Made by a program: the position numbers and the translations under genes. Shown in pieces: positions 13,820-46,627 of a stretch of 64,000 nt of DNA. The DNA is from Clostridiales bacterium (GTDB taxonomy: Bacteria; Bacillota; Clostridia; Oscillospirales; CAG-382): contig SFLA01000001.1 of the NCBI GenBank assembly GCA_004553575.1, positions 30,521-94,520 of the forward strand. The letters are read 5' to 3'. Every line of letters begins with the position of its first letter. Position 1 is the first letter of the stretch. The notes beneath the pieces were generated by a model. The model was not told the DNA's origin. It saw only the letters and a program-made list of their open reading frames with translations, and did not search any database.

Positions 13820-13841
13820 AGCCTTTACTGCCTCGGCACCA

Positions 13842-13870
13842 AGTATAACAAATCGCAGGAGCAAAGTCAA
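13842..13870 (-). promoter_or_regulatory. sigma-70-type promoter for proS
   Basis: On the minus strand: TTGACT (13870-13865), 17-nt spacer, TATACT (13847-13842). Confidence 0.5.
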
Positions 13871-13916
13871 GCGCCGTCGCAGGTCCTGCAACCACTTTTT
13901 TACGGAGGGAACATAT

Positions 13917-20446: not shown

Positions 20447-20469
20447 ATCAACGGGGGTATTACGGCAAA

Positions 20470-22766: not shown

Positions 22767-22781
22767 GGGGGTGAGCTGACA

Positions 22782-24290
22782 ATGAACGAACATAACAACT
22801 CCTCCGACCGGTTATCTTTATTCGATTTTCAGGATGTATTCAAGGGCGTTAGAAAGCTGCTGCCGCTGTTTCTTGCGCTGCTCGTGCTGATTTCCGCGGT
22901 ACTGTGCGCATATACCTACTTCAGCTACGTCCCGTATTACACTTCGACCGCGACCTTTACCATAACGCTTTCGGGAAGCTACGGATCCTCGAACAGCTTT
23001 TATTATTCGACCACCGCCGCACAGCTCGCAAAGACATTTCCTTATATACTGCAAAGCGGTACGCTCGGCGATATGATAGCCGCCGATCTCGGCACCGATT
23101 CGGTTCCGGGCAGTATAAGCGTGCATTCCCTGGAAAATACGAACATCTTCACCATGACCGTATCCTCGTCCGACCCGGAGAACGCCTACAGGGTGCTGAT
23201 GTCGGCAATAGACAATTATCCCGATCTGGCGCGGTTTGTCGTCGGCGACACCGTGTTCACTCTAATAAACGAGCCGGAGATACCGTCCTCGCCCGCCAAT
23301 TCACGTTCCTACCGCAGCGCCGTCCGCAATGCGCTGCTTATCAGCCTCGTGCTGTACGCTCTGGCGGTAACGCTGTACGTACTGACCAGATCCACGGTAC
23401 GCCGGACGGAAGATATAAAACGGATGCTTAACGTAAAGTGCATCGGTACGGTGCCGTTTGTCAAGCTTAAAAAGCGCGGCAAAAACGGCAGGAGCGAACC
23501 GATACTTATAACCAACAAGAAGCTGCCGCACAGCTTTTCGGAAGGTATACGGCTTATCCGCACAAAGCTCGAGCGGGAGGGCAAGGGAAAAACCGTGCTC
23601 GTAACCAGCGCCTGCGAAAACGAGGGGAAATCGACCGTCGCGGTCAATCTGGCGCTGTCGCTTGCCGAGAAGGGGTATCAGACCCTGCTTATAGACTGCG
23701 ACCTCAGGAACCCCTCCTGCGCGAAGATACTCGGCATCGGCGAACCGCCGGCGGGGCTCGGCGATTATCTCGCGGGAAAGGCTCCGCTCAGCAAGCTCGG
23801 CTTCAAGCTTACGGCAATGTCGGGGCTTATGCTTATCCCCGGCAGGGGAAATCTCGCGTCGGCTGCGGAATCGCTCGACACTTCCGCCATGAAGAAGCTG
23901 ATAGACTCCATGCGGAACTACGTCGATTTCATAATACTCGATACCACCCCCTGCGCGGTGATAACCGACGCGGCGGTGCTCGCAAAGCAGGCTGACGAGG
24001 CGGTGTTCGTAGTGCGTCAGGACTACGCGAGCAAGGACAGAATACTCGACGGTGTTTCCACCCTGTCCGAAAGCGGCGTTCCGATACTCGGCTGTGTGTT
24101 TAACGCAATGCAAAGCGGCGGAAGCGGATACGGCGGCTACTACGGAAGATATTCGTATTCGCGGTATGCATACGGGAGCTACGGAAGCCATTACGGCAAA
24201 TACAACGAAGCCGACTCCTCTGCCGACACGGATGAGCAACCCACGGTCGGCAGACCGGACGCCGACGCGGCAAATAACAAAAACCAGTAA
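22782..24290 (+). CDS. fused Wzz-domain / BY-kinase (tyrosine autokinase), copy 2
   Basis: Same architecture as copy 1. Walker A ENEGKST, A' TLLIDCDLRNP, B FIILDTTP. Tyr cluster GYGGYYGRYSYSRYAYGSYGSHYGKY followed by an acidic tail. GGGGGTGAG RBS before ATG 22782. Confidence 0.85.
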   Translation: MNEHNNSSDRLSLFDFQDVFKGVRKLLPLFLALLVLISAVLCAYTYFSYVPYYTSTATFTITLSGSYGSSNSFYYSTTAAQLAKTFPYILQSGTLGDMIAADLGTDSVPGSISVHSLENTNIFTMTVSSSDPENAYRVLMSAIDNYPDLARFVVGDTVFTLINEPEIPSSPANSRSYRSAVRNALLISLVLYALAVTLYVLTRSTVRRTEDIKRMLNVKCIGTVPFVKLKKRGKNGRSEPILITNKKLPHSFSEGIRLIRTKLEREGKGKTVLVTSACENEGKSTVAVNLALSLAEKGYQTLLIDCDLRNPSCAKILGIGEPPAGLGDYLAGKAPLSKLGFKLTAMSGLMLIPGRGNLASAAESLDTSAMKKLIDSMRNYVDFIILDTTPCAVITDAAVLAKQADEAVFVVRQDYASKDRILDGVSTLSESGVPILGCVFNAMQSGGSGYGGYYGRYSYSRYAYGSYGSHYGKYNEADSSADTDEQPTVGRPDADAANNKNQ

Positions 24291-24306
24291 CGAATCGGGA
24301 CCTGAA

Positions 24307-26277
24307 ATGAATGCAAAAAAAGCCGGAACGTCCACGCGGCGTCCCATCAACGCGCGCACAACGCGAATAATACTTCTTATGATCGCGGATGCCGCGATTG
24401 TAAACCTGGCAGCGTTCCTTTCGCTTATGCTGCGAATGGAATTCAATTTATCCGAGCTTGTCGAATGCGGATTCCTTGACAGTATGCTGTCATACGCACC
24501 GCTGAACACCGTAACGGCTCTGATTATAATACTGCTGTTCGGGCTTTACGACAGCATGTGGGAGTTCGCCGGGGTGGACGAGCTTATTAACTCAATCTTT
24601 GCGGCGCTCTGTATTTCCGCCTCGAACCTTGTCGGTATGTTCTGCTTCGGAATGATCCGCGGCAGCAAGCTGTTCGAAAGCCCCGTAACCTCCGCATGGG
24701 ACCTTATCACGAAGGTGTTCACCGTCGCGGAGATGCCGAAAAGCTTCCCGGCGATCTACATACTGGTGCTTATTGCCGGTATCGGCGGGGCGAGACTTTC
24801 CTACCGGCTTATACGGCGCAAAAAGCATATGCTGGGTCAGAACGTCGTGCGCACCATGGTAATCGGTGCGGGCAGAGCGGGCGCGATAGTCATACGCGAC
24901 CTTACGAGCAGCTCGCTGAGCGACAACCGCGTGGTGTGCATTATCGACGACGACCCCTCCAAGCTGGGCGCAAAAATCTACGGCGTTAAGGTGGTCGGCG
25001 GCAGCGATACGATAAAAGAGAACGTAAAAAAATACGGTGTCGACGAGATTCTGTTTGCAATACCCACGGCGAGCGCGTCCCGCCGCAGGGAGATACTCGG
25101 CATCTGCTCCGAGACGGGATGTCAGCTTAAAATCCTCCCGGGACTGTACCAGCTTGCCAGCGGAGAAGTCCGCATTGAGAAGCAGCGTGAGGTACGTATT
25201 GAAGACCTGCTCGGGCGGGACAGCGTTAAAATCGACCCTGCCGGTGTAAGCAGCACAATATGCGGCATGACTGCGCTGGTCACCGGAGGCGGCGGCTCCA
25301 TCGGCAGCGAGCTCTGCCGGCAGATAGCCGCTTGCTCGCCGAAAAAGCTGATCGTTTTCGATATTTACGAAAACAACGCCTATGCGATACAGCAGGAGCT
25401 GCTCCACGCTTATCCTAATCTGGATCTTACGGTGCTTATCGGATCGGTAAGAGACGTCAACAGGGTTAACGAGGTGTTTTCGCTCTACCGTCCGGATCTC
25501 GTCTTCCACGCCGCCGCGCACAAGCACGTTCCGCTTATGGAAAGCAGTCCGCTCGAGGCGGTCAAAAACAACGTCTTCGGAACGCTTACGGTCGCCCGCG
25601 CCGCCGATAAATACGGCACCCGCAGAATGTGTCTTATATCGACGGACAAGGCGGTCAATCCGACCAACGTAATGGGCGCCACCAAGCGGATATGCGAAAT
25701 GATTGTCCAATACATGGACGGAATCAGCAAAACCGATTATGTGGCGGTGCGGTTCGGAAACGTGCTCGGCAGCAACGGAAGCGTTATCCCGCTGTTCCGC
25801 CGGCAGATAGCCTACGGCGGTCCGGTCACGGTCACGCACAAGGATATAACCCGTTTCTTTATGACCATTCCCGAGGCGGTTTCACTTATACTCCAGGCGG
25901 GCGCCTTTGCGCAGGGCGGCGAAATATTCGTGCTTGACATGGGCGAGCCGGTTAAAATCGATACTCTTGCGCGCAATATGATACGGCTTTCGGGATATGA
26001 GCCGGACGTGGATATAAAAATCGTCTATACAGGTCTCCGCCCGGGAGAGAAGCTGTACGAAGAGGTGCTGATATCGGGCGAGGGCAACAAAAAGACCGAA
26101 AACGAGCTGATATTTATACGGGAGCCGCTGCAGTTCAGCTCCGAAAAGCTGCTCGACGGGCTTGACAAGCTGCATTCGCTGTCAGATACCGCACCCGTGT
26201 CGGAGGTAAAGCATGCGCTCGCCGATCTGGTCGATACCTACACGCCGGACGAGCGCGAAGAATCGGCGGCAAAATGA
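24307..26277 (+). CDS. membrane-bound CapD/PglF/WbpM-type nucleotide-sugar 4,6-dehydratase
   Basis: ATG 24307; ORF-track start 24052 overlaps the kinase gene. Four N-terminal TM segments. Rossmann motifs VIGAGRAG and VTGGGGSIGSE, plus the conserved STDKAVNPTNVMGATKR segment. Confidence 0.85.
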   Translation: MNAKKAGTSTRRPINARTTRIILLMIADAAIVNLAAFLSLMLRMEFNLSELVECGFLDSMLSYAPLNTVTALIIILLFGLYDSMWEFAGVDELINSIFAALCISASNLVGMFCFGMIRGSKLFESPVTSAWDLITKVFTVAEMPKSFPAIYILVLIAGIGGARLSYRLIRRKKHMLGQNVVRTMVIGAGRAGAIVIRDLTSSSLSDNRVVCIIDDDPSKLGAKIYGVKVVGGSDTIKENVKKYGVDEILFAIPTASASRRREILGICSETGCQLKILPGLYQLASGEVRIEKQREVRIEDLLGRDSVKIDPAGVSSTICGMTALVTGGGGSIGSELCRQIAACSPKKLIVFDIYENNAYAIQQELLHAYPNLDLTVLIGSVRDVNRVNEVFSLYRPDLVFHAAAHKHVPLMESSPLEAVKNNVFGTLTVARAADKYGTRRMCLISTDKAVNPTNVMGATKRICEMIVQYMDGISKTDYVAVRFGNVLGSNGSVIPLFRRQIAYGGPVTVTHKDITRFFMTIPEAVSLILQAGAFAQGGEIFVLDMGEPVKIDTLARNMIRLSGYEPDVDIKIVYTGLRPGEKLYEEVLISGEGNKKTENELIFIREPLQFSSEKLLDGLDKLHSLSDTAPVSEVKHALADLVDTYTPDEREESAAK

Positions 26278-27152
26278 AAAAAGGAGCAGAAATGACCGCG
26301 TTTTTAACAGTCGTATTAATACTGCTCGTATATGCGGTTTTCTCGGTCGCCGTTTCGTACGCTTCGGTCGAGACTTCACGAAACGAGCTTACGCTTAAGG
26401 GCATTACCGACGAAGCAGTCATCGTTCTTATCAGCGATCTTCACGGCAGAGAAGTCGGGCGCGGGAATTCAAAGCTTATATCGGCGGTAAAAGCCGCCGG
26501 TCCTGACGCCGTCTGTCTTACCGGAGACTTTATAGACGTCGGCGACAGCGAACGGGATATAGATGAATTCTGCAGTCTGGTAAGCGCTCTGTGCGGGATC
26601 GCGCCGGTATATTACAGCTACGGCAACCATGAGATGCGCCGTATCGCAAACGGCGGGGACGACTTTTCGGACAAAATATCCGCCGCAGGTGCCAAATTGC
26701 TCGAATGCTCATACACGGACGTGAATATCAACGGTCAGACGGTGCGTATCGGCGGAATGTACGGAAGCGGATTCGTTACGGAAAACGAGCCTGAGGGATC
26801 GGACGAGGCGAGACGATACTGCTTTCTTACCGAATTCACCGCATGCGAGTACCCGACTTTGCTTCTGTCGCACTGCCCGGATTCCTTCGTTATCGGCTCC
26901 GAAGAGGCGGACTGGGAGATAGGACTGATATTATCGGGTCACGTTCACGGAGGACTGTGGCGTCTGCCGATCGTCGGCGGGCTGGTATCGCACTCCGAAG
27001 GGCTGTTTCCCGTGCACGATAAGGGAATGTTTGCGCTCGGGCGCTCACACATGGTTATAACATCGGGTCTTGCGGGGAGCGGGTGGATACCGCGGCTCGG
27101 CAACCCCGGAGAGATTACCGTAATAACACTGAAACCGGAGAACACAAAATGA
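26274..27152 (+). CDS. membrane-anchored metallophosphoesterase (calcineurin-like)
   Basis: N-terminal TM. Motifs ISDLHG, TGDFID, GNHE, SGHVHGG. ATGA overlap with the upstream gene. Confidence 0.8.
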   Translation: MKKGAEMTAFLTVVLILLVYAVFSVAVSYASVETSRNELTLKGITDEAVIVLISDLHGREVGRGNSKLISAVKAAGPDAVCLTGDFIDVGDSERDIDEFCSLVSALCGIAPVYYSYGNHEMRRIANGGDDFSDKISAAGAKLLECSYTDVNINGQTVRIGGMYGSGFVTENEPEGSDEARRYCFLTEFTACEYPTLLLSHCPDSFVIGSEEADWEIGLILSGHVHGGLWRLPIVGGLVSHSEGLFPVHDKGMFALGRSHMVITSGLAGSGWIPRLGNPGEITVITLKPENTK

Positions 27153-29536
27153 AAAAACTTTTATCCGCAATACTTTTAACCGCAATTATCGGAGGAATTC
27201 TTATGACCGGCTGCAGCAATACCGGAAAAACCGTTAACGCCGCCCTCGGGGCTCCCTGCTTCACCGGAAGCGGATGCGTATACGAGGGCAGTCTGTCCGC
27301 GATTACCGACGGAAACGAAAAAACCTCCGCCGTTATCCGCCCCGACCCGGATTACGCATCCGAGCTGACCTTCGGCGATTGGTACGGAAATTCGCATACC
27401 GAGGCGCTTCCCGCAGGAAGAATTGCCGTCACCGTCGATCTCGGCTTTATCACCGCCGCGGAGAAGATAACCGTAACCGGCGAATATTCCGGAGCCGTAA
27501 AGGTTTATCTGTCCGACGACGGATACAATTTCACAAAATATCTCGGTGAATTCGGCGAAAAGACCATACCGGTCAATTCGGATGTCAAGGCGGTAATGCT
27601 TACCTTCGAATCCGGCGAAATCACTTTAAGCGAAATCGCGGTTACCGGAATCCGTACCGCCGAGAAGGTGCTGCTGTCGTCCGGCTGTTCGTATGAGTGG
27701 GAGGGCACCCGAATGACCGCTTACTCGGATGCCGGCACCGAGCTTACCGACGGTATATACTTTGAGAAGAACGACGATGAAAACACCGATGCGCTTTCCG
27801 GCCGCACCTCTCACGAGGAGGACGGGCTGACCGGAAAATACGGCAATGTTATAACCGTCGATCTCGGAAGTATAAAGAACGTGTCCGAAGTGTCCTTCGG
27901 CGCATATCTCGCACGGGGCGGAAAATCGCTCGTTCCCGACCGCATTGACGTAAGATATTCGGCTGACGGAGAAGCCTGGACGGATTTCGGGCAGAGCTTT
28001 CTGGTTTCGCGCTCCGGGGCGTCCGAGGATTGCTCAAACCGTTATTTCGTAACACGCGCATATACGGTCGAGGCAAGATACATAAGAATCTTCACTTATG
28101 CAGACGGACTTTTCTGCACCGATGAAATCGAGATTTACGGCTGCAAAACCGCGGTGGCCGAGCCCGGATACAGCCGCCCCGCCGCCGTCGAAAGCCTTAC
28201 CGACACCGCCGCCGGCTGCGAAGCGCTGATCAACGGCACCCCCGCCTCCGCGCTTACGGATCTGATCTTCACTGCCGGAGTTCCCGCCGGAGGCAGTTCG
28301 ACCGTTAAAATCAACCTCGGAAAGACTACCGGTATAACCGGAGTCTGTGTAGTATGCGACGGCGAAATAACGGGAATATCCTCAGCCGCGGAGGGCAAAG
28401 CCCTTTACACCGAGGCGGCGGGAATATACACCGCCTACCTGCTGTTCGGCGAAGCCGTAACCGCCGACGAAATAGAGATATCCTTCAACTGCAGCGGAAA
28501 CGTGCTTGAGGCGGAGGCGTTCTCCGGCGCCGCACAGCTTCCCGCAGTGAGCGGCGGATTCTTCCAGCTACCCACCAACGGAGGCGGTAACGTCGCCGCG
28601 CAGAACAGCGAATACAGCTGGTTCCTGCAGCTCAAGGGAATGCACGATCTCGGAATGAGCGTGGTTGTAATACAGTATTCCACCCACTTTATTGCCAAAA
28701 CGACCCTTATAAACGGCAGGCATCTTGCCGACGCAGGATACACCTACACGGCGACCTACGGCTGTGAGGACGTTTGCCGGGCGGTGCTCGACGCCGCGGC
28801 GAAGCTCGGAATGAAGGTATATATCGGCACAATACACGACGCCGATTTCACCGATCCTGCGGCAAACACCGCTCAGTACAAAGCGATAGTCGAGGATTCA
28901 AAAGCGTCGATAAACGACATTTACGAGCTTTATTCCTCGCACCCGGCGTTCGGCGGCTATTACCTGTCCGACGAGACCTGTGATCACTGGCTCAACCTGA
29001 ACGGCGGAGTCGAGGCATGCCGATCGGTATACGAGGGGCAGTCCGAATACATCCGCTCGATCGACGGCGACGCTTCGATAATGATCGCCCCCGCAATCTG
29101 GCGTTCCGGCGATCCCGCTGCCGGTGCGGACAATCTGTACGAAATGCTTAAGCCGTCCGAGGAAGGCGGTAAGCCGGTGGTCGACATCGTCGCCGTGCAG
29201 GACTGCCTCGGCAGAGAGCTTTCGCTTACGGTAAGCGACGAGGCTTACTCCGCATGGCTCGAACGCTGCGAGCTCTGGGCAAAGGCGATAAGAAAAGCGG
29301 GAGCCGAGTTCTGGCACGACGCCGAGGTGTTCGAAATCACCTCAACCTCAAAGCGCTTCCCGGAGATAAAAAAATCGCTTGCGCTCCAGGCGCCGATATC
29401 CGGCGGGATAATCGTCTTTGATATTCCGCACTACTTCTCTCCCTGCCCCATGACCGGGATAAACGATCCGTACGGCGATTACAAGCGCCGCATTATGACG
29501 GAATATATCGAGTATTATTCGTCGCTCACCGAATAA
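27149..29536 (+). CDS. lipoprotein with discoidin (F5/8 type C)-like domains and a C-terminal DUF4434-like glycoside-hydrolase-type domain
   Basis: ATG 27149 overlaps the upstream stop (ATGA). Lipobox ILMTGC. Two regions resemble carbohydrate-binding discoidin domains (..ITDGNEKT.., ..LTDGIYFE..). C-terminal ~330 aa (WFLQLKGMHDLGMSVVVIQYS...) resemble DUF4434. Domain calls are from memory of these families. Confidence 0.5.
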   Translation: MKKLLSAILLTAIIGGILMTGCSNTGKTVNAALGAPCFTGSGCVYEGSLSAITDGNEKTSAVIRPDPDYASELTFGDWYGNSHTEALPAGRIAVTVDLGFITAAEKITVTGEYSGAVKVYLSDDGYNFTKYLGEFGEKTIPVNSDVKAVMLTFESGEITLSEIAVTGIRTAEKVLLSSGCSYEWEGTRMTAYSDAGTELTDGIYFEKNDDENTDALSGRTSHEEDGLTGKYGNVITVDLGSIKNVSEVSFGAYLARGGKSLVPDRIDVRYSADGEAWTDFGQSFLVSRSGASEDCSNRYFVTRAYTVEARYIRIFTYADGLFCTDEIEIYGCKTAVAEPGYSRPAAVESLTDTAAGCEALINGTPASALTDLIFTAGVPAGGSSTVKINLGKTTGITGVCVVCDGEITGISSAAEGKALYTEAAGIYTAYLLFGEAVTADEIEISFNCSGNVLEAEAFSGAAQLPAVSGGFFQLPTNGGGNVAAQNSEYSWFLQLKGMHDLGMSVVVIQYSTHFIAKTTLINGRHLADAGYTYTATYGCEDVCRAVLDAAAKLGMKVYIGTIHDADFTDPAANTAQYKAIVEDSKASINDIYELYSSHPAFGGYYLSDETCDHWLNLNGGVEACRSVYEGQSEYIRSIDGDASIMIAPAIWRSGDPAAGADNLYEMLKPSEEGGKPVVDIVAVQDCLGRELSLTVSDEAYSAWLERCELWAKAIRKAGAEFWHDAEVFEITSTSKRFPEIKKSLALQAPISGGIIVFDIPHYFSPCPMTGINDPYGDYKRRIMTEYIEYYSSLTE

Positions 29537-38531: not shown

Positions 38532-38566
38532 GCGGGCGGCACCGTAAATGCCGCCCGCTTTTGTTT
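38532..38566 (+). terminator. second hairpin plus T-run downstream of the atp operon
   Basis: GCGGGCGGCA-ccgtaaa-TGCCGCCCGC followed by TTTTGTTTG. Confidence 0.55.
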
Positions 38567-38573
38567 GCGTAAA

Positions 38574-39605
38574 TCAATCGGGATATATGTATATACCCAA
38601 TATATCGGCGTAGTTACCGCCGGGAGTATCAAAATTAACCTCGTAAAATGCCGATATTCCGACCTTTCCGTTTTTAACAAAGCAAACTGCCGACTTCAGT
38701 TCTATACCGGTAATCATTTCGTTTTCGTCGAGTCCGGGTTCCCAGAATTCAAACGCCGTAGCGATAAGCGCGTCTTCGGTAATACCCGACAGCAGTTCTT
38801 TCTGCTCCGCAGTCAGCTCCGGCGGGTCGATAACCTGCACGATAACCGAGCCCCGGGAAGAAAAAACCACTTCCGCGCCCGCACTGATTTTTAACCGTTC
38901 GACCGAAAAGCCGTAAACAATTCTGTATCGCCGTATAACCTCGTTTTCGTTTTCGGCGACAGCAAAGCCCTCGCGGGTCCAGCCGCTCATCCCGTTTTCG
39001 GAATATGACCACCCGGCGGTATAAACCGTGCATTCGGCGCCGGAAAGGTCTATATCCGAAATCCCGGATATGTATTCGATTGCCTTTGCACGCAGCTCCG
39101 ATTCGCTTGTACGGGTAATATCGATTGCGGAAGTCGGATATCCGACCGTCCTGAACACCTTACCGGTGTCTCTCCGTACACACACAAAACTGCCTGTGTC
39201 TTTATCCGGGTTATCCGACTCGTAGATATCAAAAACGAAATCCCGGTACGGAAGATCCGCAGTGCTCCGGTAGGTCATATTCGTCGGTACGCCGTACAGT
39301 TCGAAGACTGCGCTTTTTTCGTTTACGGCGTTATCGGTATATTCCTCCGGCTCAATATACATGCCGGCATCCCCGGATACGGAGTCCGTACCTTCGGAAG
39401 CTATTTCCAACACGGTGCCGGAGATCTTTTCTGCGTCCGGCGGGACGAAAGCGCCGGGACCGCTGTCGGTAACGTCTCCGGAATAATCGGAATAAAGGCT
39501 GCCGTCGGATCCGTCCCCCGGAATATCGTTCCCAACCGCGCAGGAAGCAAGACATGCGGCACATACCGCCGCGGCAAGCAAAAGTGCAATAAACGTTTTT
39601 CTCAT
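38574..39605 (-). CDS. hypothetical lipoprotein
   Basis: Lipobox ...AACLASC after MRKTFIALLLAAAV. AAGGGAGG RBS. No recognisable domain. Confidence 0.6.
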   Translation of the reverse strand: MRKTFIALLLAAAVCAACLASCAVGNDIPGDGSDGSLYSDYSGDVTDSGPGAFVPPDAEKISGTVLEIASEGTDSVSGDAGMYIEPEEYTDNAVNEKSAVFELYGVPTNMTYRSTADLPYRDFVFDIYESDNPDKDTGSFVCVRRDTGKVFRTVGYPTSAIDITRTSESELRAKAIEYISGISDIDLSGAECTVYTAGWSYSENGMSGWTREGFAVAENENEVIRRYRIVYGFSVERLKISAGAEVVFSSRGSVIVQVIDPPELTAEQKELLSGITEDALIATAFEFWEPGLDENEMITGIELKSAVCFVKNGKVGISAFYEVNFDTPGGNYADILGIYIYPD

Positions 39606-39701: not shown

Positions 39702-39752
39702 CACTTTGCCCAAAATAATGCCGATTTCGTAACGATTTTTGTATATACTCAC

Positions 39753-39792
39753 AAAAAGTCCCTTGCGGCCGGTTATATCGCCGCAAGGGACC
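39753..39792 (-). terminator. rho-independent terminator of the PadR/lipid operon
   Basis: Minus strand reads GGTCCCTTGCGGC-gatataac-cGGCCGCAAGGGAC followed by TTTTTG, about 20 nt after the last stop codon (39814). Confidence 0.8.
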
Positions 39793-39813
39793 CTTTGTAT
39801 ATTATTCAGGAGG

Positions 39814-41445
39814 CTACTGTCGTTTAATCTTGTTAGAGGTCGTCTTTTCGAACGGGGAATCGCGCAGGATAACACGCGACACGTTTTTATATGCAGGCAG
39901 ACAGGAAAGCATCTCCTGCACATCGGCAAGCACCTTTTCCTCGTCGGTCCGCTCGGGGCAGTATATCTCTGCCTCAAGCCCGACTTCGTCGCCGCGCGAA
40001 TTCTTTATACCGCGCACCACGCACTCGGAAACGTATTCGATACGCGCTATATACTTTTCTATTTCCTCGGGGTATACGTTCTTTCCGTTGGACATTACCA
40101 CGATATTCTTTTTCCTGCCCGTTATAATAAGGCGGTCGTCGGGGGTGATAATACCGTAGTCGCCGGTGCGGAAGAATCCGTCCTCGGTGAAGACCTCGGC
40201 GGTCTTCTCCGGCTGCTTGTAGTAGCCCTTCATGACCACATCGCCCTTTACGAGCACCTCGCCCGCGCCGTCGGAATCCGGTGAATCGATCTTCCATTCG
40301 ATACAGCGGAGACGTGTTCCGCAGGTGTCGAAATCGTTGCGGGTCAGCTCGTCGTTGACACAGACCAGCGGCGAACACTCGGTTATCCCGTAGCCGCCGA
40401 CGAGCGTAAGTCCGACCGTATCGAAAAACCTGCCGACTTCGGGGCGTATCGGTGCGCCGCCGCAGACGATCTTTTTAAGTCTTCCGCCGAAGTTCTTCTG
40501 AATTTCGGCAAACAGCTTCGGACGAAGATCGATCCCGACCTTACGCATTGAATCGGAAAGCAGTACAGCCGTTCCGAACTTCTTTTCCTTGCCGCTCTTG
40601 CGTATCTGACGGCGTATGGCCGCATAGAACACATCGGCGAAGGCGGGAACGAGATAAATATATGACGGCTTGTAAAACTGCATTTCCTGCACTACGTTTT
40701 TAAGCGATTCGCTTATGCAGAGCGTAGAGCCGAAATGAAGGGAAACGAGAATATCGCAAACCGCCTCGTACGCATGATGATACGGAAGCACAGAAAGTCC
40801 GCAGTCATATATCTGCGACACCTCGAGCCCGCAGCATACCGAAGAAACGAGATTATGCTCGGTCAGCATTACGCCTTTGGCTATTCCGGTAGTGCCGGAG
40901 GTGTATATCAGTAGCTTGGTTTTGTCCGGTCGGTAATCAAACTCACGACGCGGAAGATCCTTTCCGCGCTCCGCGAGCGAGTAAATCGTTTCCGCCGAAT
41001 CACATTCGGGCTCGAGCGAGAAAACATATTTTATCCCCGGCAGCTTGTCTGAATTCTCCAGCACCGTGCCGATATTCTTCTCGTCGCAGAACACCGCCTC
41101 GCTGTCGCTGTCGGAAAGCAGATGCAGCTTTTCCTCCGGCGTAAGCTCCTTGTCGATGGGAACGAAGGTTCCGTTTCCGCCGAGCACCGTAAGATATGCG
41201 GCAATATACTCGAAGCTGTTCCGTCCGATACATGCGATATGAGCGCGGTCAAGCCCCATCTCCGCCAGAGCCGCGCCGATATTATCGGTAAATACACGGA
41301 ACTGCTCGAAGGAAACGTCCTTCACCTCGCCGCCCGCCTTGTAGCGGTATGCCGTTTTTTCGCCACCGCGCCCGGCGGCGCCGTCGATAAGCTCGCGTAT
41401 GCTGTTAACCGGAGGCGGGCACTCCCGTCTTATGTTCTTACGCAT
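39814..41445 (-). CDS. AMP-dependent synthetase/ligase (long-chain acyl-CoA/acyl-ACP synthetase-like), copy 2
   Basis: AMP-binding motif IYTSGTTGIAKGV, later GYGITE and ...FRTGDYG.... Start taken at ATG 41445 (8-nt overlap with the ACP gene); 41472 is also possible. Confidence 0.8.
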   Translation of the reverse strand: MRKNIRRECPPPVNSIRELIDGAAGRGGEKTAYRYKAGGEVKDVSFEQFRVFTDNIGAALAEMGLDRAHIACIGRNSFEYIAAYLTVLGGNGTFVPIDKELTPEEKLHLLSDSDSEAVFCDEKNIGTVLENSDKLPGIKYVFSLEPECDSAETIYSLAERGKDLPRREFDYRPDKTKLLIYTSGTTGIAKGVMLTEHNLVSSVCCGLEVSQIYDCGLSVLPYHHAYEAVCDILVSLHFGSTLCISESLKNVVQEMQFYKPSYIYLVPAFADVFYAAIRRQIRKSGKEKKFGTAVLLSDSMRKVGIDLRPKLFAEIQKNFGGRLKKIVCGGAPIRPEVGRFFDTVGLTLVGGYGITECSPLVCVNDELTRNDFDTCGTRLRCIEWKIDSPDSDGAGEVLVKGDVVMKGYYKQPEKTAEVFTEDGFFRTGDYGIITPDDRLIITGRKKNIVVMSNGKNVYPEEIEKYIARIEYVSECVVRGIKNSRGDEVGLEAEIYCPERTDEEKVLADVQEMLSCLPAYKNVSRVILRDSPFEKTTSNKIKRQ

Positions 41446-41677
41446 TCTTGCAGACCGCCTTGTTCTCGACATAATCCACTATATCGCCGACGGTCACAAG
41501 TCCGTCAAGATCGTTTTCGTCAAATGAAATGCCGAATTCGTCCTCGAAGGCTATTACCGCATTAAGAAATTCAAGGCTGGATATGCCGAGATCGTTGCGG
41601 AGATCCGCATCGGGCTTTACATCCGATTCGTCCCTGCCCAGCTCCTCGACAATAATTTTGCGTACTCTTTCAAACAT
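41438..41677 (-). CDS. acyl carrier protein (stand-alone, 79 aa)
   Basis: Four-helix-size acidic protein with the phosphopantetheine attachment motif DLGISSLEFLN. Confidence 0.85.
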   Translation of the reverse strand: MFERVRKIIVEELGRDESDVKPDADLRNDLGISSLEFLNAVIAFEDEFGISFDENDLDGLVTVGDIVDYVENKAVCKNA

Positions 41678-41697
41678 GTCTGATCATTACTCCCCGA

Positions 41698-42489
41698 TTA
41701 TTTTGAATATATGGCTCCTATAAGACGGTTGAGCGCCCGCGCCGGAAGCAGTTTGGTAAGCAGCACCGCGCATTTATACCCGAAGCCTATTGTGTAAAGC
41801 GGCTTGTGTCCGTTCTTCGTTGCAACGGAGGCGATAAAGCGCCCGGCCTTCGAAGCGGGCATTCCTCCGCGCTCGTCCTTTTCCATTGTACTTACCGATC
41901 TGGATATCCTGCCTCCGTATTCGGAATCTCCCGCCGTGTTCTTATTGCGCGAATCCGTAAATCCGGTGCGTATATCGCCCGGCATAACCCCGCAGACGGT
42001 TATACCGTAAGGTCTTACCTCGTTGGCAAGCGCCATAACGAAGGAATTAACGGCGGCCTTTGATACCGAATAATAAGTCTGGAAGGGTATCGGCACGACC
42101 GCCGCGACCGAAGAAGTGCAGACTATCCGTCCGCACCCGGCGGCACGCATATACGGAAGCACCGCATGAACGGTACGTATGCATCCGAAAAGGTTGACGT
42201 TCAGTTGCTTTTCCGCGTCGGCAACATCGGTAAACTCGACCGCACCCGATATACCGTATCCGGCATTGCTTACGAGTATATCTATTCTGCCCTCGCGGTC
42301 GAACACCGCTTTTACCGCAGCATTTACCGCGTCTTCGTCGGTTACGTCGCAGCTTATGTGCTTAACTCCGGGCAGATCCGCACCTCGGCGGGAAAAATCG
42401 TAAACGCTTACGCCGCGCGCGGCGAGCTCTCTCGCGCACTCCAGCCCGATACCCGAGCTTGCGCCGGTGACAACGGCGACCTTACCCAT
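41698..42489 (-). CDS. classical short-chain dehydrogenase/reductase (SDR)
   Basis: TGASSGIG cofactor motif, NAG, catalytic S...YSVSK. 8-nt overlap with the upstream alpha-oxoamine synthase (AOS) gene. Confidence 0.85.
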   Translation of the reverse strand: MGKVAVVTGASSGIGLECARELAARGVSVYDFSRRGADLPGVKHISCDVTDEDAVNAAVKAVFDREGRIDILVSNAGYGISGAVEFTDVADAEKQLNVNLFGCIRTVHAVLPYMRAAGCGRIVCTSSVAAVVPIPFQTYYSVSKAAVNSFVMALANEVRPYGITVCGVMPGDIRTGFTDSRNKNTAGDSEYGGRISRSVSTMEKDERGGMPASKAGRFIASVATKNGHKPLYTIGFGYKCAVLLTKLLPARALNRLIGAIYSK

Positions 42490-43654
42490 TTGTTATGACC
42501 GAAGCTATTATCCCTACCGCCTCGTCGATAAGCGGCTCGGTCAGAGACGCCATATAGCTGGTGCGCAGCAGACATCCGCCCTCCGGGCAGGCGGGAGGAA
42601 GCACCGGGTTAAGATATACTCCGCGGTCGTAAATCTCGCGGGATTTTTCAAGCGTATTGTAAACGTCGTCGGTATAAATCGGAACTATCGGCGTGGGGGA
42701 TTCGATAATCTTTACCCCGGCTGCCTTAAGTCCGCGGCGGGCGTGATCGGCAAGTCTGCCGAGACGAACCGGAAGCTCCGGATCGTCTTCGAGCACACGC
42801 AGCGCCGCCAGCGCCGTCGCGCAGGAAGCGGGTGTTATCGACGCGGAGAAAATAAACGGGCGGGATGCGTGCCGCACGTAATCCACCACTTCCTCGTCGG
42901 CGGCCATATAACCGCCGAGGCTTGCGAGCGACTTCGAGAAGGTACCCATGTAAATATCGGTTTCCGCTTCAAGCCCGAAGTAGCTTGCCGTACCTCTGCC
43001 GCCCTCTCCGAGCACGCCGAGTCCGTGTGCGTCGTCCACCATAACGCGTGCGCCGTACTTCTTTGCCAGCCTGACTATTTCGGGCAGACGGCATATGTCG
43101 CCGCTCATGGAGAACACGCCGTCGGTAACAATAAGTATACCGCCCTTGCCCTCACAGCTTATAAGCAGCCGTTCGAGATCCTCCATGTCGCTGTGCTTGT
43201 ATACATAGGTGCGGGCGTACGAAAGACGGCAGCCGTCGTAAATGCTTGCGTGATTCTCACGGTCGCAGAGTATGTAATCGCCGTGTCCGGCTATCGCGGA
43301 GATAATTCCCAGATTCGACTGAAATCCGGTGGAAAAGGTGGTAACCGCACCCTTGCGGAGAAACTTCGCAAGCTCCGCCTCAAGCTCGAGATGCAGGTTA
43401 AGAGTTCCGTTAAGAAACCTCGACCCGGAACAGCCCGTGCCGTATTTTTCCACCGCCTTCACGCCCGCCTCGATAACCGCGGGGTGAACGGTAAGCCCGA
43501 GATAATTGTTGCTCCCGAGCATTATCCGGCGCTTGCCCTCCATTATAACCTCGGTATCCTGCCGGCTCTCGAGCGCGTGAAAATACGGGTATATACCCTT
43601 TTCCTTAACCTCCTTCACGAGCGAAGGGGCATAGCACTTTTCAAATAAATCCAT
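42482..43654 (-). CDS. PLP-dependent alpha-oxoamine synthase, serine-palmitoyltransferase-like
   Basis: SNNYLGL, DDAHGLGVLG, PLP-Lys GTFSKSLASLGGY, C-terminal GVYLNPVLPPACPEGGCLLRTS. Colinear by eye with Sphingomonas and Bacteroides SPT sequences as I recall them. Confidence 0.75.
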   Translation of the reverse strand: MDLFEKCYAPSLVKEVKEKGIYPYFHALESRQDTEVIMEGKRRIMLGSNNYLGLTVHPAVIEAGVKAVEKYGTGCSGSRFLNGTLNLHLELEAELAKFLRKGAVTTFSTGFQSNLGIISAIAGHGDYILCDRENHASIYDGCRLSYARTYVYKHSDMEDLERLLISCEGKGGILIVTDGVFSMSGDICRLPEIVRLAKKYGARVMVDDAHGLGVLGEGGRGTASYFGLEAETDIYMGTFSKSLASLGGYMAADEEVVDYVRHASRPFIFSASITPASCATALAALRVLEDDPELPVRLGRLADHARRGLKAAGVKIIESPTPIVPIYTDDVYNTLEKSREIYDRGVYLNPVLPPACPEGGCLLRTSYMASLTEPLIDEAVGIIASVITNG

Positions 43655-43656
43655 CT

Positions 43657-45378
43657 TTACACCGCCGTTTTGTTATTTTCTTTTTCCAGTTCCTCCTGCT
43701 CAAGCTCGCGGTAGGCGACCTTGCCGACAAGAGTCTTGGGAAGGGACTTGCGGAATTCAATCTCCTTGGGAACGGCATAACGCGCCATGTTCTTGCGGCA
43801 GTATTCGATAAGTATCTGACGGTTCTCCTCGCTCGGCTGTACGCCGGGCTTAAGCATTACGAACGCCTTTACACGCTGCATCTTAACCGGGTCCTTAACC
43901 CCGATAACACAGCTCATGTGTACGAGCTCATGCGCGTCAAGTATATTCTCGAGCTGCGACGGATAGACATTATAGCCGCTCGTGATTATCATACGCTTAA
44001 TACGCTGGCGGAAATACACGAAGCCCTCCTCGTCCATAACGCCGAGATCTCCGGTATGTACCCAGGTTTTGCCGTCGTCGTGCACCCTAAGAGTGTTCGC
44101 GGTCTCCTCCGGGTGGTTTACGTATTCCATCATGACGGTGGGTCCGGCAATGCAGATTTCGCCCTCCTCGCCGTAAGGAACCTCCTCGGTCGTGCCGACG
44201 CGAACTATCTTGAAGAAGGTGTCGGGAAACGGCTGGCCAATACTGCCCTCCTTGGCAAGATGCAGCGGGGTAAGGCAGCAGGCGGTAACCGTCTCGGTCG
44301 TGCCGTAGCCCTCGCGCACTTTTATCGGGGCGCCGTGCTCGGCAAGGAACCGGTCGAACCTCTTTTTCAGCTCTACCGAAAGCGAATCCCCGCCGCTGAA
44401 CACACCCTTAAGGCAGGACAGGTCGGCGCCCTCCATGGACGGCAGGCGCAGAAGCGCCTCGTAGAGGGTGGGAACTCCGGCAATAAAGTTACAGCGGTGC
44501 TTTACAAGCAGCTTTGCGTAGCTTTCTGCGGTAAATCTCGGCACAAGTATGCATCTTCCGCCGTTGGCAAGCATCGAATGAATGCTTACCCCCAGACCGA
44601 AGCCGTGGAATATCGGCATGACGGCAAGCATCTTGTCGCCGGGGCGGAACATCGGGTTGGTCGCGATAATCTGCTCCGCAAGCGCGTTGAAGTTAAGGTT
44701 GGAAAGCAATATCCCCTTGGTTACTCCCGTGGTTCCGCCGCTGTACAGCACCACCGCGGGGTCGGCAGCCCTGCGCTGCACGAGATACTGCGAAGGATAG
44801 TTCTTACCGAGTGCGATAAAATCGTTCCAGTATACCACCGGAGCGTCCTTCGGCATCTTCGGCACCTTGCGGGCGGAAGTAAGCTCGTAGCCGACCTTCA
44901 TAATCGGAGACAGTTCGTCTTTTATCGTTGCGATAATAAGATGCGGAAGATCCACCTCGGCACGTATGGCGGCAAACTTGGGGTAAAACTGATCGAGCGT
45001 TATTGCCGCTACGCTTCCGGATTCCTTTAAGTAGAATTTTATCTCGTTCTCGCCGGATAGCGGATGCACCATATTGGCTATGGCGCCGACTCCGTTTATC
45101 GCATAGAACATCACGACAGCCTGCGGACAGTTGGGCATGCACACGGTTACCTTATCGCCCTCGCGAACGCCGAGTGTCTTAAGCGCTTTTGCGCAGGAAT
45201 CGAGCTTGACGGAAAGCTCGGCGTAGGTGGTCGTCTTTCCCATAAAGTCGTATGCTATGTTGTCGGGATACTTCTCGCAGATAGATTTTATCCTTTCCCA
45301 CATCGACCCGTCCGGATAATCCAGAGTCGGAGGAACCTCGCCGTAATTGTTAAGCCACGGAGTTTTTACGGTATTCAT
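43657..45378 (-). CDS. AMP-dependent synthetase/ligase (acyl-ACP/acyl-CoA synthetase-like), copy 1
   Basis: LYSGGTTGVTKGI, GYGTTE, ...VHTGDLG.... 573 aa. 2-nt gap to the AOS gene. Confidence 0.8.
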   Translation of the reverse strand: MNTVKTPWLNNYGEVPPTLDYPDGSMWERIKSICEKYPDNIAYDFMGKTTTYAELSVKLDSCAKALKTLGVREGDKVTVCMPNCPQAVVMFYAINGVGAIANMVHPLSGENEIKFYLKESGSVAAITLDQFYPKFAAIRAEVDLPHLIIATIKDELSPIMKVGYELTSARKVPKMPKDAPVVYWNDFIALGKNYPSQYLVQRRAADPAVVLYSGGTTGVTKGILLSNLNFNALAEQIIATNPMFRPGDKMLAVMPIFHGFGLGVSIHSMLANGGRCILVPRFTAESYAKLLVKHRCNFIAGVPTLYEALLRLPSMEGADLSCLKGVFSGGDSLSVELKKRFDRFLAEHGAPIKVREGYGTTETVTACCLTPLHLAKEGSIGQPFPDTFFKIVRVGTTEEVPYGEEGEICIAGPTVMMEYVNHPEETANTLRVHDDGKTWVHTGDLGVMDEEGFVYFRQRIKRMIITSGYNVYPSQLENILDAHELVHMSCVIGVKDPVKMQRVKAFVMLKPGVQPSEENRQILIEYCRKNMARYAVPKEIEFRKSLPKTLVGKVAYRELEQEELEKENNKTAV

Positions 45379-45379
45379 A

Positions 45380-46078
45380 TTACTTACTACCTTTCTCTTC
45401 TTTCTTTCGGTTTGTATACGCCACAGTCATTGCGGCGAGACGCTTACCGACCTTGCACAGCAACAGTAATCCGCCGAAGATCAGCAGCCAAACCGGCAGC
45501 AGAATCGTAATTTTATATCCGTAACCGGTCACAAAGGTACCGGAAAGCAGATCCATTGCAACGAAAACGAACACGACCGCCGCAAGATACACCGTTACCA
45601 CGAGCTTGCGGGAACGGTATGCGGCTAACCGCATAAGCACCAGCCCGATGACAAGTGTCATTGCAACCGTGCAGTATTTCAGAACAAACGGCACCGGAGC
45701 CGTAAGCCGCAGACCGTCGATTACCGCCGGAGACATATTCCCGAACGCGAGCTTGACCAGATATAATATCGGAACGACCGCCGCGAGCGCATACCAGATA
45801 TACTGAACCGAATCAAGCACCCGTTCTATCGGAGTCTGCCGCGGGATGTTCTGAATAAGCGCACGGCAGAATTCTCGGTAATCGGTACCTATAGCGGACG
45901 AGAACGGCTCGCCGCGATGCTGACACTCGAGCGCCATACCGACAAGATCCGATATCGTCTCCTCGTACGCGACTTCGTTAAGATAATGAGCCTGAAGATA
46001 CACAGCCATACGCCTTATCTCGCGCCTGTTTTCCGCGCTAAGTCTTGACGCTGCCGTCTTCAACTCTCTGTTCGACAT
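45380..46078 (-). CDS. PadR-associated membrane protein (N-terminal helical HAAS/DUF1700-like domain plus multiple TM segments)
   Basis: Soluble helical N-terminus (~85 aa), then about four hydrophobic segments. Overlaps the 3' end of the PadR gene. The family call is tentative. Confidence 0.45.
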   Translation of the reverse strand: MSNRELKTAASRLSAENRREIRRMAVYLQAHYLNEVAYEETISDLVGMALECQHRGEPFSSAIGTDYREFCRALIQNIPRQTPIERVLDSVQYIWYALAAVVPILYLVKLAFGNMSPAVIDGLRLTAPVPFVLKYCTVAMTLVIGLVLMRLAAYRSRKLVVTVYLAAVVFVFVAMDLLSGTFVTGYGYKITILLPVWLLIFGGLLLLCKVGKRLAAMTVAYTNRKKEEKGSK

Positions 46079-46409
46079 GCGGTGCCTCCTTTACGATTAT
46101 TTCCGCGGCAGCCGTATTCAGGTTTATCCAGCAATCCGTGAACTCGTTAAGATACTGCCTGCCGTAATCGGTTATCGTGTAGTATTTGCGCTTGGGCCCG
46201 AGCGGAGACGAACGAAGCTCCGAAGAGATGATGTTTTGCTTTTCCAGCCGGAGCAGCAGGGGATAAATCGTCCCCTCGGAAACGTCCCTGAATCCGCTGC
46301 CGCGCAGATATTCGATTATTTCGTAGCCGTATGTCGTCTCGCGGGAAATGATTTTTAGTATACATCCCTCCAGCGTTCCGCGCATAAGCTGTGACCTGTC
46401 AAAAAGCAT
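46038..46409 (-). CDS. PadR-family transcriptional regulator
   Basis: Winged-helix signature LEGCILKIISRETTYGYEIIEYL....SEGTIYPLLLRLEKQN...KRKYYTIT. ATG 46409 is preceded by an AAGGAGA RBS; ORF-track start 46451 lacks one. Confidence 0.85.
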   Translation of the reverse strand: MLFDRSQLMRGTLEGCILKIISRETTYGYEIIEYLRGSGFRDVSEGTIYPLLLRLEKQNIISSELRSSPLGPKRKYYTITDYGRQYLNEFTDCWINLNTAAAEIIVKEAPHVEQRVEDGSVKT

Positions 46410-46461
46410 TCCCTGTCTCCTTGCCTGCGCATGGGTACTATGCCGTACCAAGTACTGCTAC

Positions 46462-46490
46462 ATTGTATCGCAAAGTAGAGCGCGTGTCAA
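46462..46490 (-). promoter_or_regulatory. sigma-70-type promoter of the PadR/lipid operon
   Basis: On the minus strand: TTGACA (46490-46485), 17-nt spacer, TACAAT (46467-46462). Confidence 0.55.
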
Positions 46491-46589: not shown

Positions 46590-46627
46590 TAAAAATAAGC
46601 CCCCGCGAAGCTGTCGCTTCGCGGGGC
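46590..46627 (-). terminator. rho-independent terminator after recN
   Basis: Minus strand reads CCCCGCGAAGC-gaca-GCTTCGCGGGG followed by CTTATTTTTA. Confidence 0.8.

Follow-up and report, generated by a model that had tools for sequence, protein, structure and literature searches.

Genes and transcription signals of the operon

The stretch analysed here is a 64,000-nt (64-kb) segment of contig SFLA01000001.1 from a Clostridiales bacterium (the window), and it carries an operon that is a candidate for the synthesis of sphingoid-like lipids. Seven closely packed open reading frames (ORFs) run in the same direction on the minus strand from 39814 to 46451 and make up one unit within the region 39753-46490 (Table 1). 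They encode, in gene order, a PadR regulator, a membrane protein, an AMP-ligase (Lig1), an alpha-oxoamine synthase (AOS), a short-chain dehydrogenase/reductase (SDR), an acyl carrier protein (ACP) and another AMP-ligase (Lig2). The junctions between the longest ORFs are -41, +1, +2, -8, +20 and -35 nt. In a Pfam scan of the seven proteins the families found are PadR, AMP-binding with AMP-binding_C (Lig1), Aminotran_1_2 (AOS), adh_short (SDR), PP-binding (ACP) and AMP-binding with a weak AMP-binding_C_3 (Lig2). Two of the genes are probably shorter than their longest ORFs. For PadR the most probable start is ATG 46409 (123 aa), which has the Shine-Dalgarno sequence AAGGAGA 7 nt ahead of it, and for Lig2 it is ATG 41445 (543 aa), so that the overlap of Lig2 with the ACP gene is then 8 nt. 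Both revisions are based on the placement of the Shine-Dalgarno sequence, orthologue alignment and the gene calls in near-identical contigs.

The unit is preceded by a sigma-70-type promoter and closed by an intrinsic terminator. Upstream of padR in the related locus L084 (L numbers denote the compared loci), both promoter hexamers recur in the corresponding position; L087 keeps the -35 hexamer and differs at -10. Immediately downstream of -10 lies a box, GTAGCAGTACTTGGTACGGCATAGTACC, which the window shares with L084 and L087 and which is a candidate PadR operator. A repeat finder with a 6-nt seed found no clear inverted repeat that could serve as such an operator, the GTAC-N3-GTAC dyad within the box being too short for it. 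The terminator hairpin (folding of 39745-39800) has a dG of -34.8 kcal/mol and a z-score of -7.8, and none of 200 shuffled sequences folds as well. It escaped a consensus scan because its loop is 10 nt long. On the upstream side the operon is isolated by the recN terminator, which marks the 5' boundary of the unit and lies outside the pathway. Promoter, terminator and junctions agree and support a single transcription unit. A preliminary description of the sequence had proposed these seven co-directional genes, their order and junctions of -41 to +20 nt, as well as a flanking promoter and a strong terminator. ORFs and Pfam families confirm the former, and the 11 of 12 matching promoter positions and the z-score of the hairpin confirm the latter.

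The identical seven-gene order, from recN to the ATP-synthase operon, is found in the independent assemblies L172-L174, and is therefore not a chance arrangement. These assemblies belong to the same or a closely related species, and their AOS falls within the same 90%-identity cluster. The upstream flank has the order ispA-dxs-tlyA-nadK-argR-recN, which we take to be the Bacillus/Clostridium arrangement and which identifies the host as a Firmicute. Horizontal acquisition was considered on the basis of base composition and rejected: the GC content of the cassette is 0.52-0.57 and the flanks are no different.

Table 1. Positions of features in the window and in the compared loci, and gene orders of the closest relatives
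Locus	Feature	Position	Strand	Remarks
Window	PadR gene	46038-46451	-	longest ORF, 137 aa from TTG 46451
Window	membrane protein gene	45380-46078	-	232 aa
Window	AMP-ligase 1 (Lig1)	43657-45378	-	573 aa
Window	alpha-oxoamine synthase (AOS)	42482-43654	-	390 aa
Window	SDR	41698-42489	-	263 aa
Window	ACP	41438-41677	-	79 aa
Window	AMP-ligase 2 (Lig2)	39814-41472	-	longest ORF, 552 aa
Window	promoter TTGACA-17-TACAAT	46462-46490	-	sigma-70-type, 11/12 positions, best promoter-like site in 38.5-47.5 kb
Window	conserved box with short GTAC-N3-GTAC dyad	46434-46461	-	just downstream of -10
Window	intrinsic terminator of operon	39753-39792	-	20-bp stem, 10-nt loop, U5 tail
Window	recN terminator	46601-46626	-	11-bp stem, 9 G-C pairs, T-run
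L084	PF00198 acyltransferase	5268-6152		
L081	PF00198 acyltransferase	4821-5714		
L091	PF00198 acyltransferase	4120-5013		
L103	PF00198 acyltransferase	1544-2428		
L053	YghO-like gene	11271-12395	-	
L061	YghO-like gene	2100-3230	-	
L057	YghO-like gene	~2087-3214	-	
L065	YghO-like gene	13564-14691	-	
L068	YghO-like gene	7058-7527	+	contig end
L084-86, L092, L095	gene order			PadR - membrane protein - acyltransferase - Lig1 - AOS - SDR - ACP - Lig2
L087	gene order			PadR - membrane protein - AOS - SDR
L081, L091	gene order			acyltransferase - Lig1 - AOS
L003	gene order			AOS - SDR - ACP, without ligase or acyltransferase
L138	gene order			AOS - SDR - ACP - Lig2
L103	gene order			acyltransferase - Lig1 - AOS - ACP - Lig2

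The AOS resembles serine palmitoyltransferase

The AOS contains the motifs SNNYLGL (residue 48), DDAHGLG (207), GTFSKSLASLGG (237) and GVYLNPVLPPACPEGGCLLR (345), with Lys241 as the lysine that binds pyridoxal 5'-phosphate (PLP). All the motifs quoted in the preliminary description for AOS, ACP and SDR are present. Among the NCBIfam hidden Markov models (HMMs), the best match of the AOS is NF047600 (SerpalmtaseCFB, the CFB-type serine palmitoyltransferase, SPT) with 501.8 bits against a cut-off of 640. Lower scores are given by the beta-proteobacterial SPT model (386 bits, cut-off 500), the BioF/Kbl-related subfamily TIGR01825 (372 bits, cut-off 535), BioF TIGR00858 (367.3 bits, cut-off 426) and KBL NF005394 (367.3 bits, cut-off 460), so that the NF047600 score is about 135 bits above those of the BioF and KBL models. 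The model of the CqsA/LqsA alpha-hydroxyketone autoinducer synthases, NF005526, gives 187.9 bits against a cut-off of 428. For calibration, the verified SPT of E. coli B scores 599 bits on its own model, 340 on NF047600 and 333 on the BioF model. Clostridial and Paludibacteraceae relatives of the AOS score 499-514 bits on NF047600. The ranking of PDB entries is similar: the S. multivorum SPT (3a2b/8guh) comes first with 391 bits, followed by Sphingomonas SPT (281), Thermus BioF/KBL (265), KBL (250), cysteate-C-fatty acyltransferase (28eh, 225), BioF (213) and CqsA (122).

The alignment with the Sphingobacterium (S. multivorum) SPT is gapless over 380 aa with 48.4% identity, and the window AOS numbering is that of the S. 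multivorum enzyme minus 3. Identical in both proteins, in S. multivorum numbering, are N52, Y54, G80, S81, F83, H138, S185, D210, H213, T241, S243 and K244, and the acyl-pocket aromatics Y25, Y27 and F28 are likewise kept. By the residue roles assigned in the Sphingobacterium SPT (PMC10196870), the AOS thus keeps the lysine that binds PLP, the His that holds the carboxylate and stacks on the cofactor, the Asp/His pair at the PLP ring, the phosphate binders, the residues in water-mediated contact with the hydroxyl of serine, and the aromatics that line the acyl pocket. The two enzymes differ at A79, which is Ser in the AOS, and at M271, which is Ile.

The scores agree with a neighbour-joining tree built from 32 sequences (300 bootstraps), in which the BL21 Spt, Kbl and BioF serve as references. 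E. coli KBL and BioF fall outside the group formed by the window clade and the characterised SPTs of E. coli B, Sphingomonas and Sphingobacterium (97%). The window clade itself is monophyletic (98%) and is the sister of the Sphingobacterium SPT (98%). HMM scores, PDB ranking, gapless alignment and tree all place the AOS within the SPT radiation, as neither BioF nor KBL. At first sight the AOS had been read as SPT-like, by eye colinear with bacterial SPTs; the analysis supports this over BioF, KBL or CqsA, and the phylogeny that had been proposed as a check gives the same answer, with a small reference set.

A housekeeping enzyme, either BioF of biotin synthesis or KBL of threonine catabolism with unrelated neighbours, is thus extremely improbable. 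Some records do name close relatives '8-amino-7-oxononanoate synthase' or 'glycine C-acetyltransferase', and both models still give 367 bits; however, neither score reaches its cut-off (426 and 460), the SPT model outscores both by 135 bits, and the tree excludes both E. coli enzymes. In addition, bioA, bioB, bioD and tdh are not seen beside the gene in the window, and the AOS gene overlaps the SDR gene and has fatty-acid ligases and an ACP on its two sides. Identity as BioF or KBL was therefore rejected.

Unlikely, although less easily dismissed, is that the same enzyme logic is applied to an amino acid other than serine (alanine, glycine, threonine, homoserine or cysteate), which would give a PadR-switched amino-lipid or a diffusible amino-ketone or amino-alcohol signal. 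The AOS stays under the SPT equivalog cut-off and forms its own clade (98%) apart from the characterised SPTs, and A79, which contacts the substrate side chain through water, is replaced by Ser. Known SPTs take Ala, Gly and homoserine as well (PMC10196870). Dedicated regulation and patchy accessory genes are also typical of specialised metabolism. On the other hand, the residues with which the Sphingobacterium SPT binds the hydroxyl and the carboxylate of serine are all kept, cysteate acyltransferase (225 bits) and CqsA (122 bits) are far more distant than the SPTs, and genes similar to bacterial ceramide synthase (bCerS) are found near the AOS-SDR pair in five relatives.

The SDR

The SDR matches Pfam PF00106 with 165 bits and has the classical cofactor and catalytic set, TGASSGIG (residue 8), NAG (75) and YSVSK (140). 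These motifs are common to all classical SDRs and are therefore necessary for, and not specific to, a KdsR function. The best NCBIfam model is NF049977 (KdsR, the Bacteroides 3-ketodihydrosphingosine reductase) with 217.3 bits, below the cut-off of 400; the SDRs of relatives score 196-251 bits on the same model. The SDR gene overlaps the AOS gene by 8 nt. We regard the SDR as a candidate 3-keto long-chain-base reductase, its coupling to the AOS being indicated by synteny.

Conserved AOS-SDR core and accessory modules

Neighbouring genes were surveyed around the best 80 AOS relatives, taken from one genome per species; their identity to the window AOS is 59% or more. Most are metagenome-assembled genomes (MAGs) of Clostridia (Oscillospiraceae, Christensenellaceae, Ruminiclostridium, Anaerofustis and others), and about 18 of the 80 are MAGs of Paludibacteraceae or other Bacteroidales. 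An SDR orthologue adjoins the AOS in 52 of the 80 species. PadR, the membrane protein, Lig1 and Lig2 are beside the AOS in none of them; the only Lig1 homologue, in L041, lies about 2.5 kb off, beyond a topoisomerase gene and on the opposite strand. Two loci (L003 and L019) have an ACP near the AOS. Clustering of the neighbouring ORFs in the 80 loci gave no other recurrent partner of the AOS-SDR pair; the genes it returned, for malate dehydrogenase, a TPR protein and an LD-carboxypeptidase, together with MarR in 4 loci, are unrelated. Among the 80 species representatives only AOS-SDR is conserved, and the idea of one conserved cassette of seven genes was therefore rejected.

The closest AOS relatives, with 76-80% identity, were used to compare the modules (Table 1). 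The operon consists of the AOS-SDR core and three modules that come and go: PadR with the membrane protein, Lig1, and ACP with Lig2. In the tree the accessory modules are confined to one AOS subclade with 98% support. The fullest arrangement, found in L084-86, L092 and L095, belongs to a very common human-gut organism; the assembly collection lists its AOS in 589 blocks. The L084-L086 proteins P0030 and P0133 are assigned to a 'Firmicutes/Bacillota bacterium' in some records and to 'Candidatus Colimorpha enterica' in another, and NCBI taxonomy places Candidatus Colimorpha enterica in Bacteroidales incertae sedis.

The Bacteroidales copies of AOS-SDR form one clade with 100% bootstrap, nested inside the Clostridial diversity (L022, L033, L034, L046, L051, L052, L054, L055, L057-L063, L065, L067 and L072, with the AOS at about 8001-9170 in most). 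Their AOS is 64-67% identical to the window AOS and 47-49% identical to the Sphingobacterium SPT, and the Bacteroidales proteins score like the Clostridial ones on the SPT and KdsR models. This nested position suggests a single transfer of the AOS-SDR pair from Clostridia to Paludibacteraceae and related Bacteroidales.

The ACP and the two AMP-ligases

The ACP matches PF00550 (54.6 bits) and exceeds the cut-off of NF002148 (78.3 bits against 71), and its attachment serine lies within DLGISSLE (29-36). Its gene is two genes from that of the AOS, and orthologues follow AOS-SDR in L003, L084 and L138, with a further one in the L103 cassette. Because AOS-SDR-ACP occurs without a ligase in L003 and AOS-SDR-ACP-Lig2 occurs in L138, the ACP probably serves the AOS.

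Both ligases are complete ANL enzymes with ordinary ANL motifs, and their best matches are long-chain fatty-acid ligases. Lig1 matches PF00501 (265.8 bits) and PF13193 (66.7 bits) and aligns end to end with NF006181, a long-chain-fatty-acid--CoA ligase (388 bits, under the cut-off of 705); its best PDB match is FadD-1 (3g7s). By these matches it is a FadD-like ANL enzyme of the long-chain acyl-CoA-synthetase type. Lig2 matches PF00501 (201.6 bits), weakly PF23562 (AMP-binding_C_3, 20.4 bits), and NF004837 with 207 bits, under its cut-off. No fatty-acyl-AMP ligase (FAAL) model is among the 25 best NCBIfam matches of Lig1 or of Lig2. The classification by HMM that had been suggested for the two ligases therefore gives a fatty-acyl-CoA ligase type for Lig1 and a FAAL for neither.

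Lig2 shares 56-59% identity with the ligases that stand in its place in the L084 and L103 cassettes. More distant relatives (46-55% identity) are abundant in metagenomes, and 66 of 80 such loci are stand-alone, with neither ACP nor AOS nearby. No recurrent neighbour of Lig2-family ligases was found in these 80 metagenomic loci. Lig2 therefore appears to be a recruited member of a common ligase family, and the idea of a dedicated ACP-loading family was rejected. Within the operon, its adjacency to the ACP gene and the overlapping stop and start codons make Lig2 a candidate ACP loader, or acyl-ACP synthetase. Tandem pairs of Lig2-family genes are present in some metagenomic contigs (L158 7073-10632, L160 7072-10635 and L165 230-3789).

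N-acyltransferase candidates in relatives

Several relatives carry a 294-297-aa acyltransferase with the 2-oxoacid-dehydrogenase catalytic domain PF00198 (45.7 bits, cut-off 23), which has a fold like that of chloramphenicol acetyltransferase (CAT). Wherever present (L081, L084, L091, L092, L095 and L103), its gene is directly upstream of Lig1. The protein contains an invariant TIDERIADG, in which Glu takes the place of the usual catalytic His, and an invariant YHHLxNWGTNS. It is annotated in databases as '2-oxo acid dehydrogenase subunit E2', and its sole PDB match is E2 with an E-value of 0.005. The L084 protein has the accession CDC72006.1. Other relatives have YghO/bCerS-like genes of the GNAT type within 5 kb of AOS-SDR: L053 (Clostridiales), L057, L061 and L065 (Paludibacteraceae), and L068, where the gene follows the SDR immediately on the same strand. 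They are 27-32% identical to E. coli BL21 YghO (E 1e-21 to 1e-36) and provide independent genomic support for a role of the AOS-SDR pair in the synthesis of ceramide-type lipids.

In the window itself, tblastn queries with E. coli YghO, with three proteins like it and with the acyltransferase of L084 gave no match in the full 64 kb, and the earlier remark that a GNAT-type ceramide synthase is missing holds for YghO-type proteins throughout the window. It had also been suggested that the second AMP-ligase could carry out an ATP-dependent N-acylation, so that the operon alone would make an N-acylated, ceramide-like product. Two ligases are indeed present for one obvious acyl-activation step, no acyltransferase is detected by tblastn, and amide-forming ANL enzymes exist elsewhere. 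However, the PF00198 gene directly upstream of Lig1 in relatives points to a division of labour between ligase and acyltransferase, Lig1 aligns end to end with acyl-CoA synthetase models, and Lig2 belongs to a widespread stand-alone family. The motifs of both ligases are those usual for ANL enzymes, and neither showed a feature peculiar to amide synthetases. Amide formation by a ligase is thus unsupported and very unlikely. N-acylation by ordinary acyltransferases is likelier, because Lig1 pairs with the PF00198 enzyme and other relatives have a YghO-like GNAT.

PadR and its membrane partner

PadR matches PF03551 with 81.5 bits, well above the cut-off of 27, and is 64-69% identical to the PadR of L084 and L087; gene callers give it 123 aa in L172-174. 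The membrane protein, whose gene overlaps padR by 41 nt, consists of a soluble helical domain, some 90 aa long, and behind it about four transmembrane helices (hydropathy segments ~90-116, 128-154, 155-186 and 187-216). It matches no Pfam family at E<=0.001, and its L084 orthologue has a weak DUF1048 match below the cut-off (E 0.007). It always adjoins PadR (L084, L087, L092, L095 and L172). As L087 has the pair before AOS-SDR alone, PadR and the membrane protein are tied to the AOS-SDR core. From their adjacency, the operon is probably autoregulated by PadR and its membrane partner. In L005 (7549-7989) and three other loci, a MarR-family regulator lies directly upstream of AOS-SDR and replaces the PadR/membrane-protein pair. 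AOS-SDR thus appears to be under different regulators in different lineages.

Proposed pathway

We propose, with a probability of about 0.6, that free fatty acids are converted by the operon into a long-chain amino alcohol resembling sphinganine. The chemistry of such a pathway is inferred from the gene content, operon signals, homologies and synteny described above. An ANL ligase would adenylate a long-chain fatty acid. By adjacency, Lig2 would then load the operon's own ACP, and the FadD-like Lig1 would make acyl-CoA, in relatives for the adjoining acyltransferase. The AOS, by homology, would condense the acyl thioester with L-serine, or with some other small amino acid, in a decarboxylative Claisen reaction that gives a 3-keto long-chain base. 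The SDR, conserved as its partner, would use NAD(P)H to reduce the 3-ketone to the 3-hydroxy base. Reduction would precede acylation, as in Bacteroides and eukaryotes. N-acylation would take place outside the operon; relatives probably use the CAT/E2-fold acyltransferase beside Lig1 or a YghO/bCerS-like GNAT, and the product here may be the free base or may be acylated by an unlinked enzyme. The chemistry is of a known kind; new are the gene architecture, the host phylum, the feed line and the regulator.

Several points weigh against this proposal. Both the AOS (502 against 640 bits) and the SDR (217 against 400 bits) stay under the cut-offs of their equivalog models, and for the SDR the generic model PRK06179 nearly equals KdsR (197 against 217 bits), while its PDB matches are generic and uninformative (FabG, ribitol dehydrogenase). 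The amino-acid substrate is unreadable from sequence, and Ser stands at the position of A79. The tree has one KBL and one BioF as outgroups and leaves out ALAS, CqsA and SulA. The Lig2 family is mostly stand-alone, with no ACP near, which makes the assignment of the ligases to steps guesswork. The operon itself contains no N-acyltransferase, head-group enzyme or transporter. Finally, neither a Clostridial SPT pathway nor Clostridial sphingolipids are described in the literature searched, which holds few subscription journals; within the same limits, the claim of the preliminary description that no equivalent has been characterised in Clostridia stands. A recent gut-lipid preprint detected SPT in E. 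coli and B. thetaiotaomicron only.

Comparison with known pathways

By sequence the closest route is that of Bacteroidota. The window AOS is the sister of the Sphingobacterium SPT, the SDR is a classical SDR of about 260 aa with KdsR as its best model, and the implied order of condensation, reduction and acylation is shared. The SPT of B. thetaiotaomicron is presumably BT_0870, and by their locus numbers we take BT_0870 and BT_0972 to be far apart. BT_0972 is the classical-SDR 3-ketosphinganine reductase KdsR (PMC9278070), and the sphingolipid genes of Bacteroidota are unclustered (PMC11334938). In contrast, the AOS and SDR of the window are joined in one operon in a Gram-positive-type Clostridium, both fall under the equivalog cut-offs, and the operon adds its own ACP, two ligases and the PadR/membrane-protein pair.

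In architecture the operon can be compared with the Rhodobacterial cluster Spt-AcpR-AasR-CerR(epi)-bCerS(YghO) known from Caulobacter, Sphingomonas and E. coli B (PMC9386255). The SPTs of this type prefer acyl-ACP from a dedicated synthetase, Spt using the acyl-AcpR made by AasR (PMC9386255), and the later steps of the Proteobacterial cluster are carried out by an epimerase-type reductase and a GNAT-type N-acyltransferase (PMC9386255, PMC11087976). Shared with the window are an ACP beside the SPT, a ligase that would feed in free fatty acids, and a clustered reductase. We compared all proteins with those of the E. coli BL21(DE3) cluster (NC_012971.2 2989282-2994885, L176 17283-22886). In that genome the genes yghO, fatty acyl-AMP ligase, epimerase-family reductase, ACP and spt lie between glcC and the lptG/lptF pair. 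Spt, with 39.8% identity to the window AOS, is the sole homologous component. E. coli AasR is a fatty-acyl-AMP ligase (NF006624, 870 bits), to which Lig1 is 22% identical and Lig2 matches over a 76-aa stretch only. The two ACPs are 32% identical, the level of generic ACPs. CerR (Epi) is an epimerase-type extended SDR, which the window SDR matches in the Rossmann region only (E 0.002). bCerS/YghO has no match in the 64-kb window, and the E2-like acyltransferase of relatives shares nothing with YghO. Orthology with the Caulobacter/E. coli B cluster was therefore rejected; because only the SPT is homologous, the architecture is analogous, and from these comparisons the cassette looks independently assembled. 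The likeness to Caulobacter and sphingomonads that had been pointed out thus holds for functional logic and fails for ancestry: only the SPT is homologous (40%), the ligases are not FAALs and the SDR is of a different kind.

A third comparison is with the Clostridial fatty-acid-amide pathway, which, as described in PMC13310621 after Chang et al. 2021, consists of the adenylating enzyme OaaA, OaaACP and OaaC, a free-standing condensation enzyme of CAT fold. The operon likewise belongs to gut Clostridia, a stand-alone ligase would likewise load an exogenous fatty acid on a stand-alone ACP, and the acyl-ACP would be consumed by a downstream enzyme. One may therefore imagine that Lig2 and the ACP activate dietary fatty acids for an amide and that AOS-SDR only supplies the amine, the more so as relatives of the cassette carry a CAT/E2-fold acyltransferase. 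We consider this highly improbable. A condensation domain is present in none of the seven proteins (Pfam), and the acyltransferase of the relatives is a PF00198 protein, not a C domain of a nonribosomal peptide synthetase, which travels with Lig1 and not with ACP-Lig2. Moreover, L003 has the ACP with AOS-SDR and without ligase or acyltransferase. In the pathway that we propose, by contrast with the amide pathway, the acceptor would be a PLP-bound amino acid and the bond formed C-C instead of amide.

The sulfonolipid (capnine) pathway with the cysteate acyltransferase SulA/CapB and the 3-ketocapnine reductase CapC (PMC11211663) is likewise a two-step route from AOS and SDR to a long-chain amino alcohol. 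The window AOS differs from it in its affinities, with 225 bits for cysteate-C-fatty acyltransferase (28eh) against 391 bits for SPT, and no gene for cysteate synthesis is among the window genes scanned. SulA reportedly takes acyl-ACP as its acyl donor.

Other genes in the window

Directly 3' of the operon, at 38574-39605 on the minus strand, lies a gene for a 343-aa protein that matches no Pfam family and carries a signal of the lipoprotein type (…LASCAV…). The gene has a separate promoter-like site, TG-extended, at 39701-39673 and is found at the same position in L172-L174; a bidirectional terminator at 38532-38558 is shared by this gene and atpC. A Pfam scan of 20 other large ORFs of the window gave housekeeping and capsule genes only. 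A capsule or exopolysaccharide cluster lies at 19667-29536, with a CpsB/CapC phosphatase, a Polysacc_synt_2 dehydratase, a DUF4434/F5_F8-type-C protein and a tandem pair of Wzz/ParA-type proteins of 481 and 502 aa (chain-length or tyrosine-kinase type). CpsB and the double ParA-type block are also found just downstream of the AOS in L081-L083.

Implications

Bacterial sphingolipids of the gut are credited almost entirely to Bacteroidota; they enter host tissues and modulate immunity and lipid metabolism. The operon and its relatives suggest that scavenged fatty acids may be turned into sphingosine-like lipids by some Gram-positive anaerobes of the gut. A broader reading, possible and held tentatively, is that many gut and rumen Clostridia (Oscillospiraceae, Christensenellaceae and relatives) make sphingoid bases or ceramide-like lipids by a pathway independent of both known bacterial versions. 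It would have its own SPT clade, later passed once to Paludibacteraceae, a KdsR-like SDR joined to it in one operon and, in one subclade, the ACP-ligase feed and a His-to-Glu CAT/E2-fold enzyme as a third, non-homologous type of bacterial ceramide synthase, with a switch formed by PadR and the membrane protein. Metagenomic surveys that use canonical SPT models alone would overlook these proteins, because their scores do not reach the NCBI cut-off and their annotations read BioF, KBL or generic aminotransferase.

The operon is a compact case of a putative SPT fed by its own ACP and ligases in a bacterium mostly without acyl-CoA metabolism, and this feed line would be parallel to, and not homologous with, the Proteobacterial AcpR/AasR solution. 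The His-to-Glu E2-like acyltransferase of the relatives is a candidate for a new type of ceramide synthase. If Clostridial AOS-SDR pairs do make sphingoid bases, a second large and abundant gut phylum would add to the sphingolipid pool.

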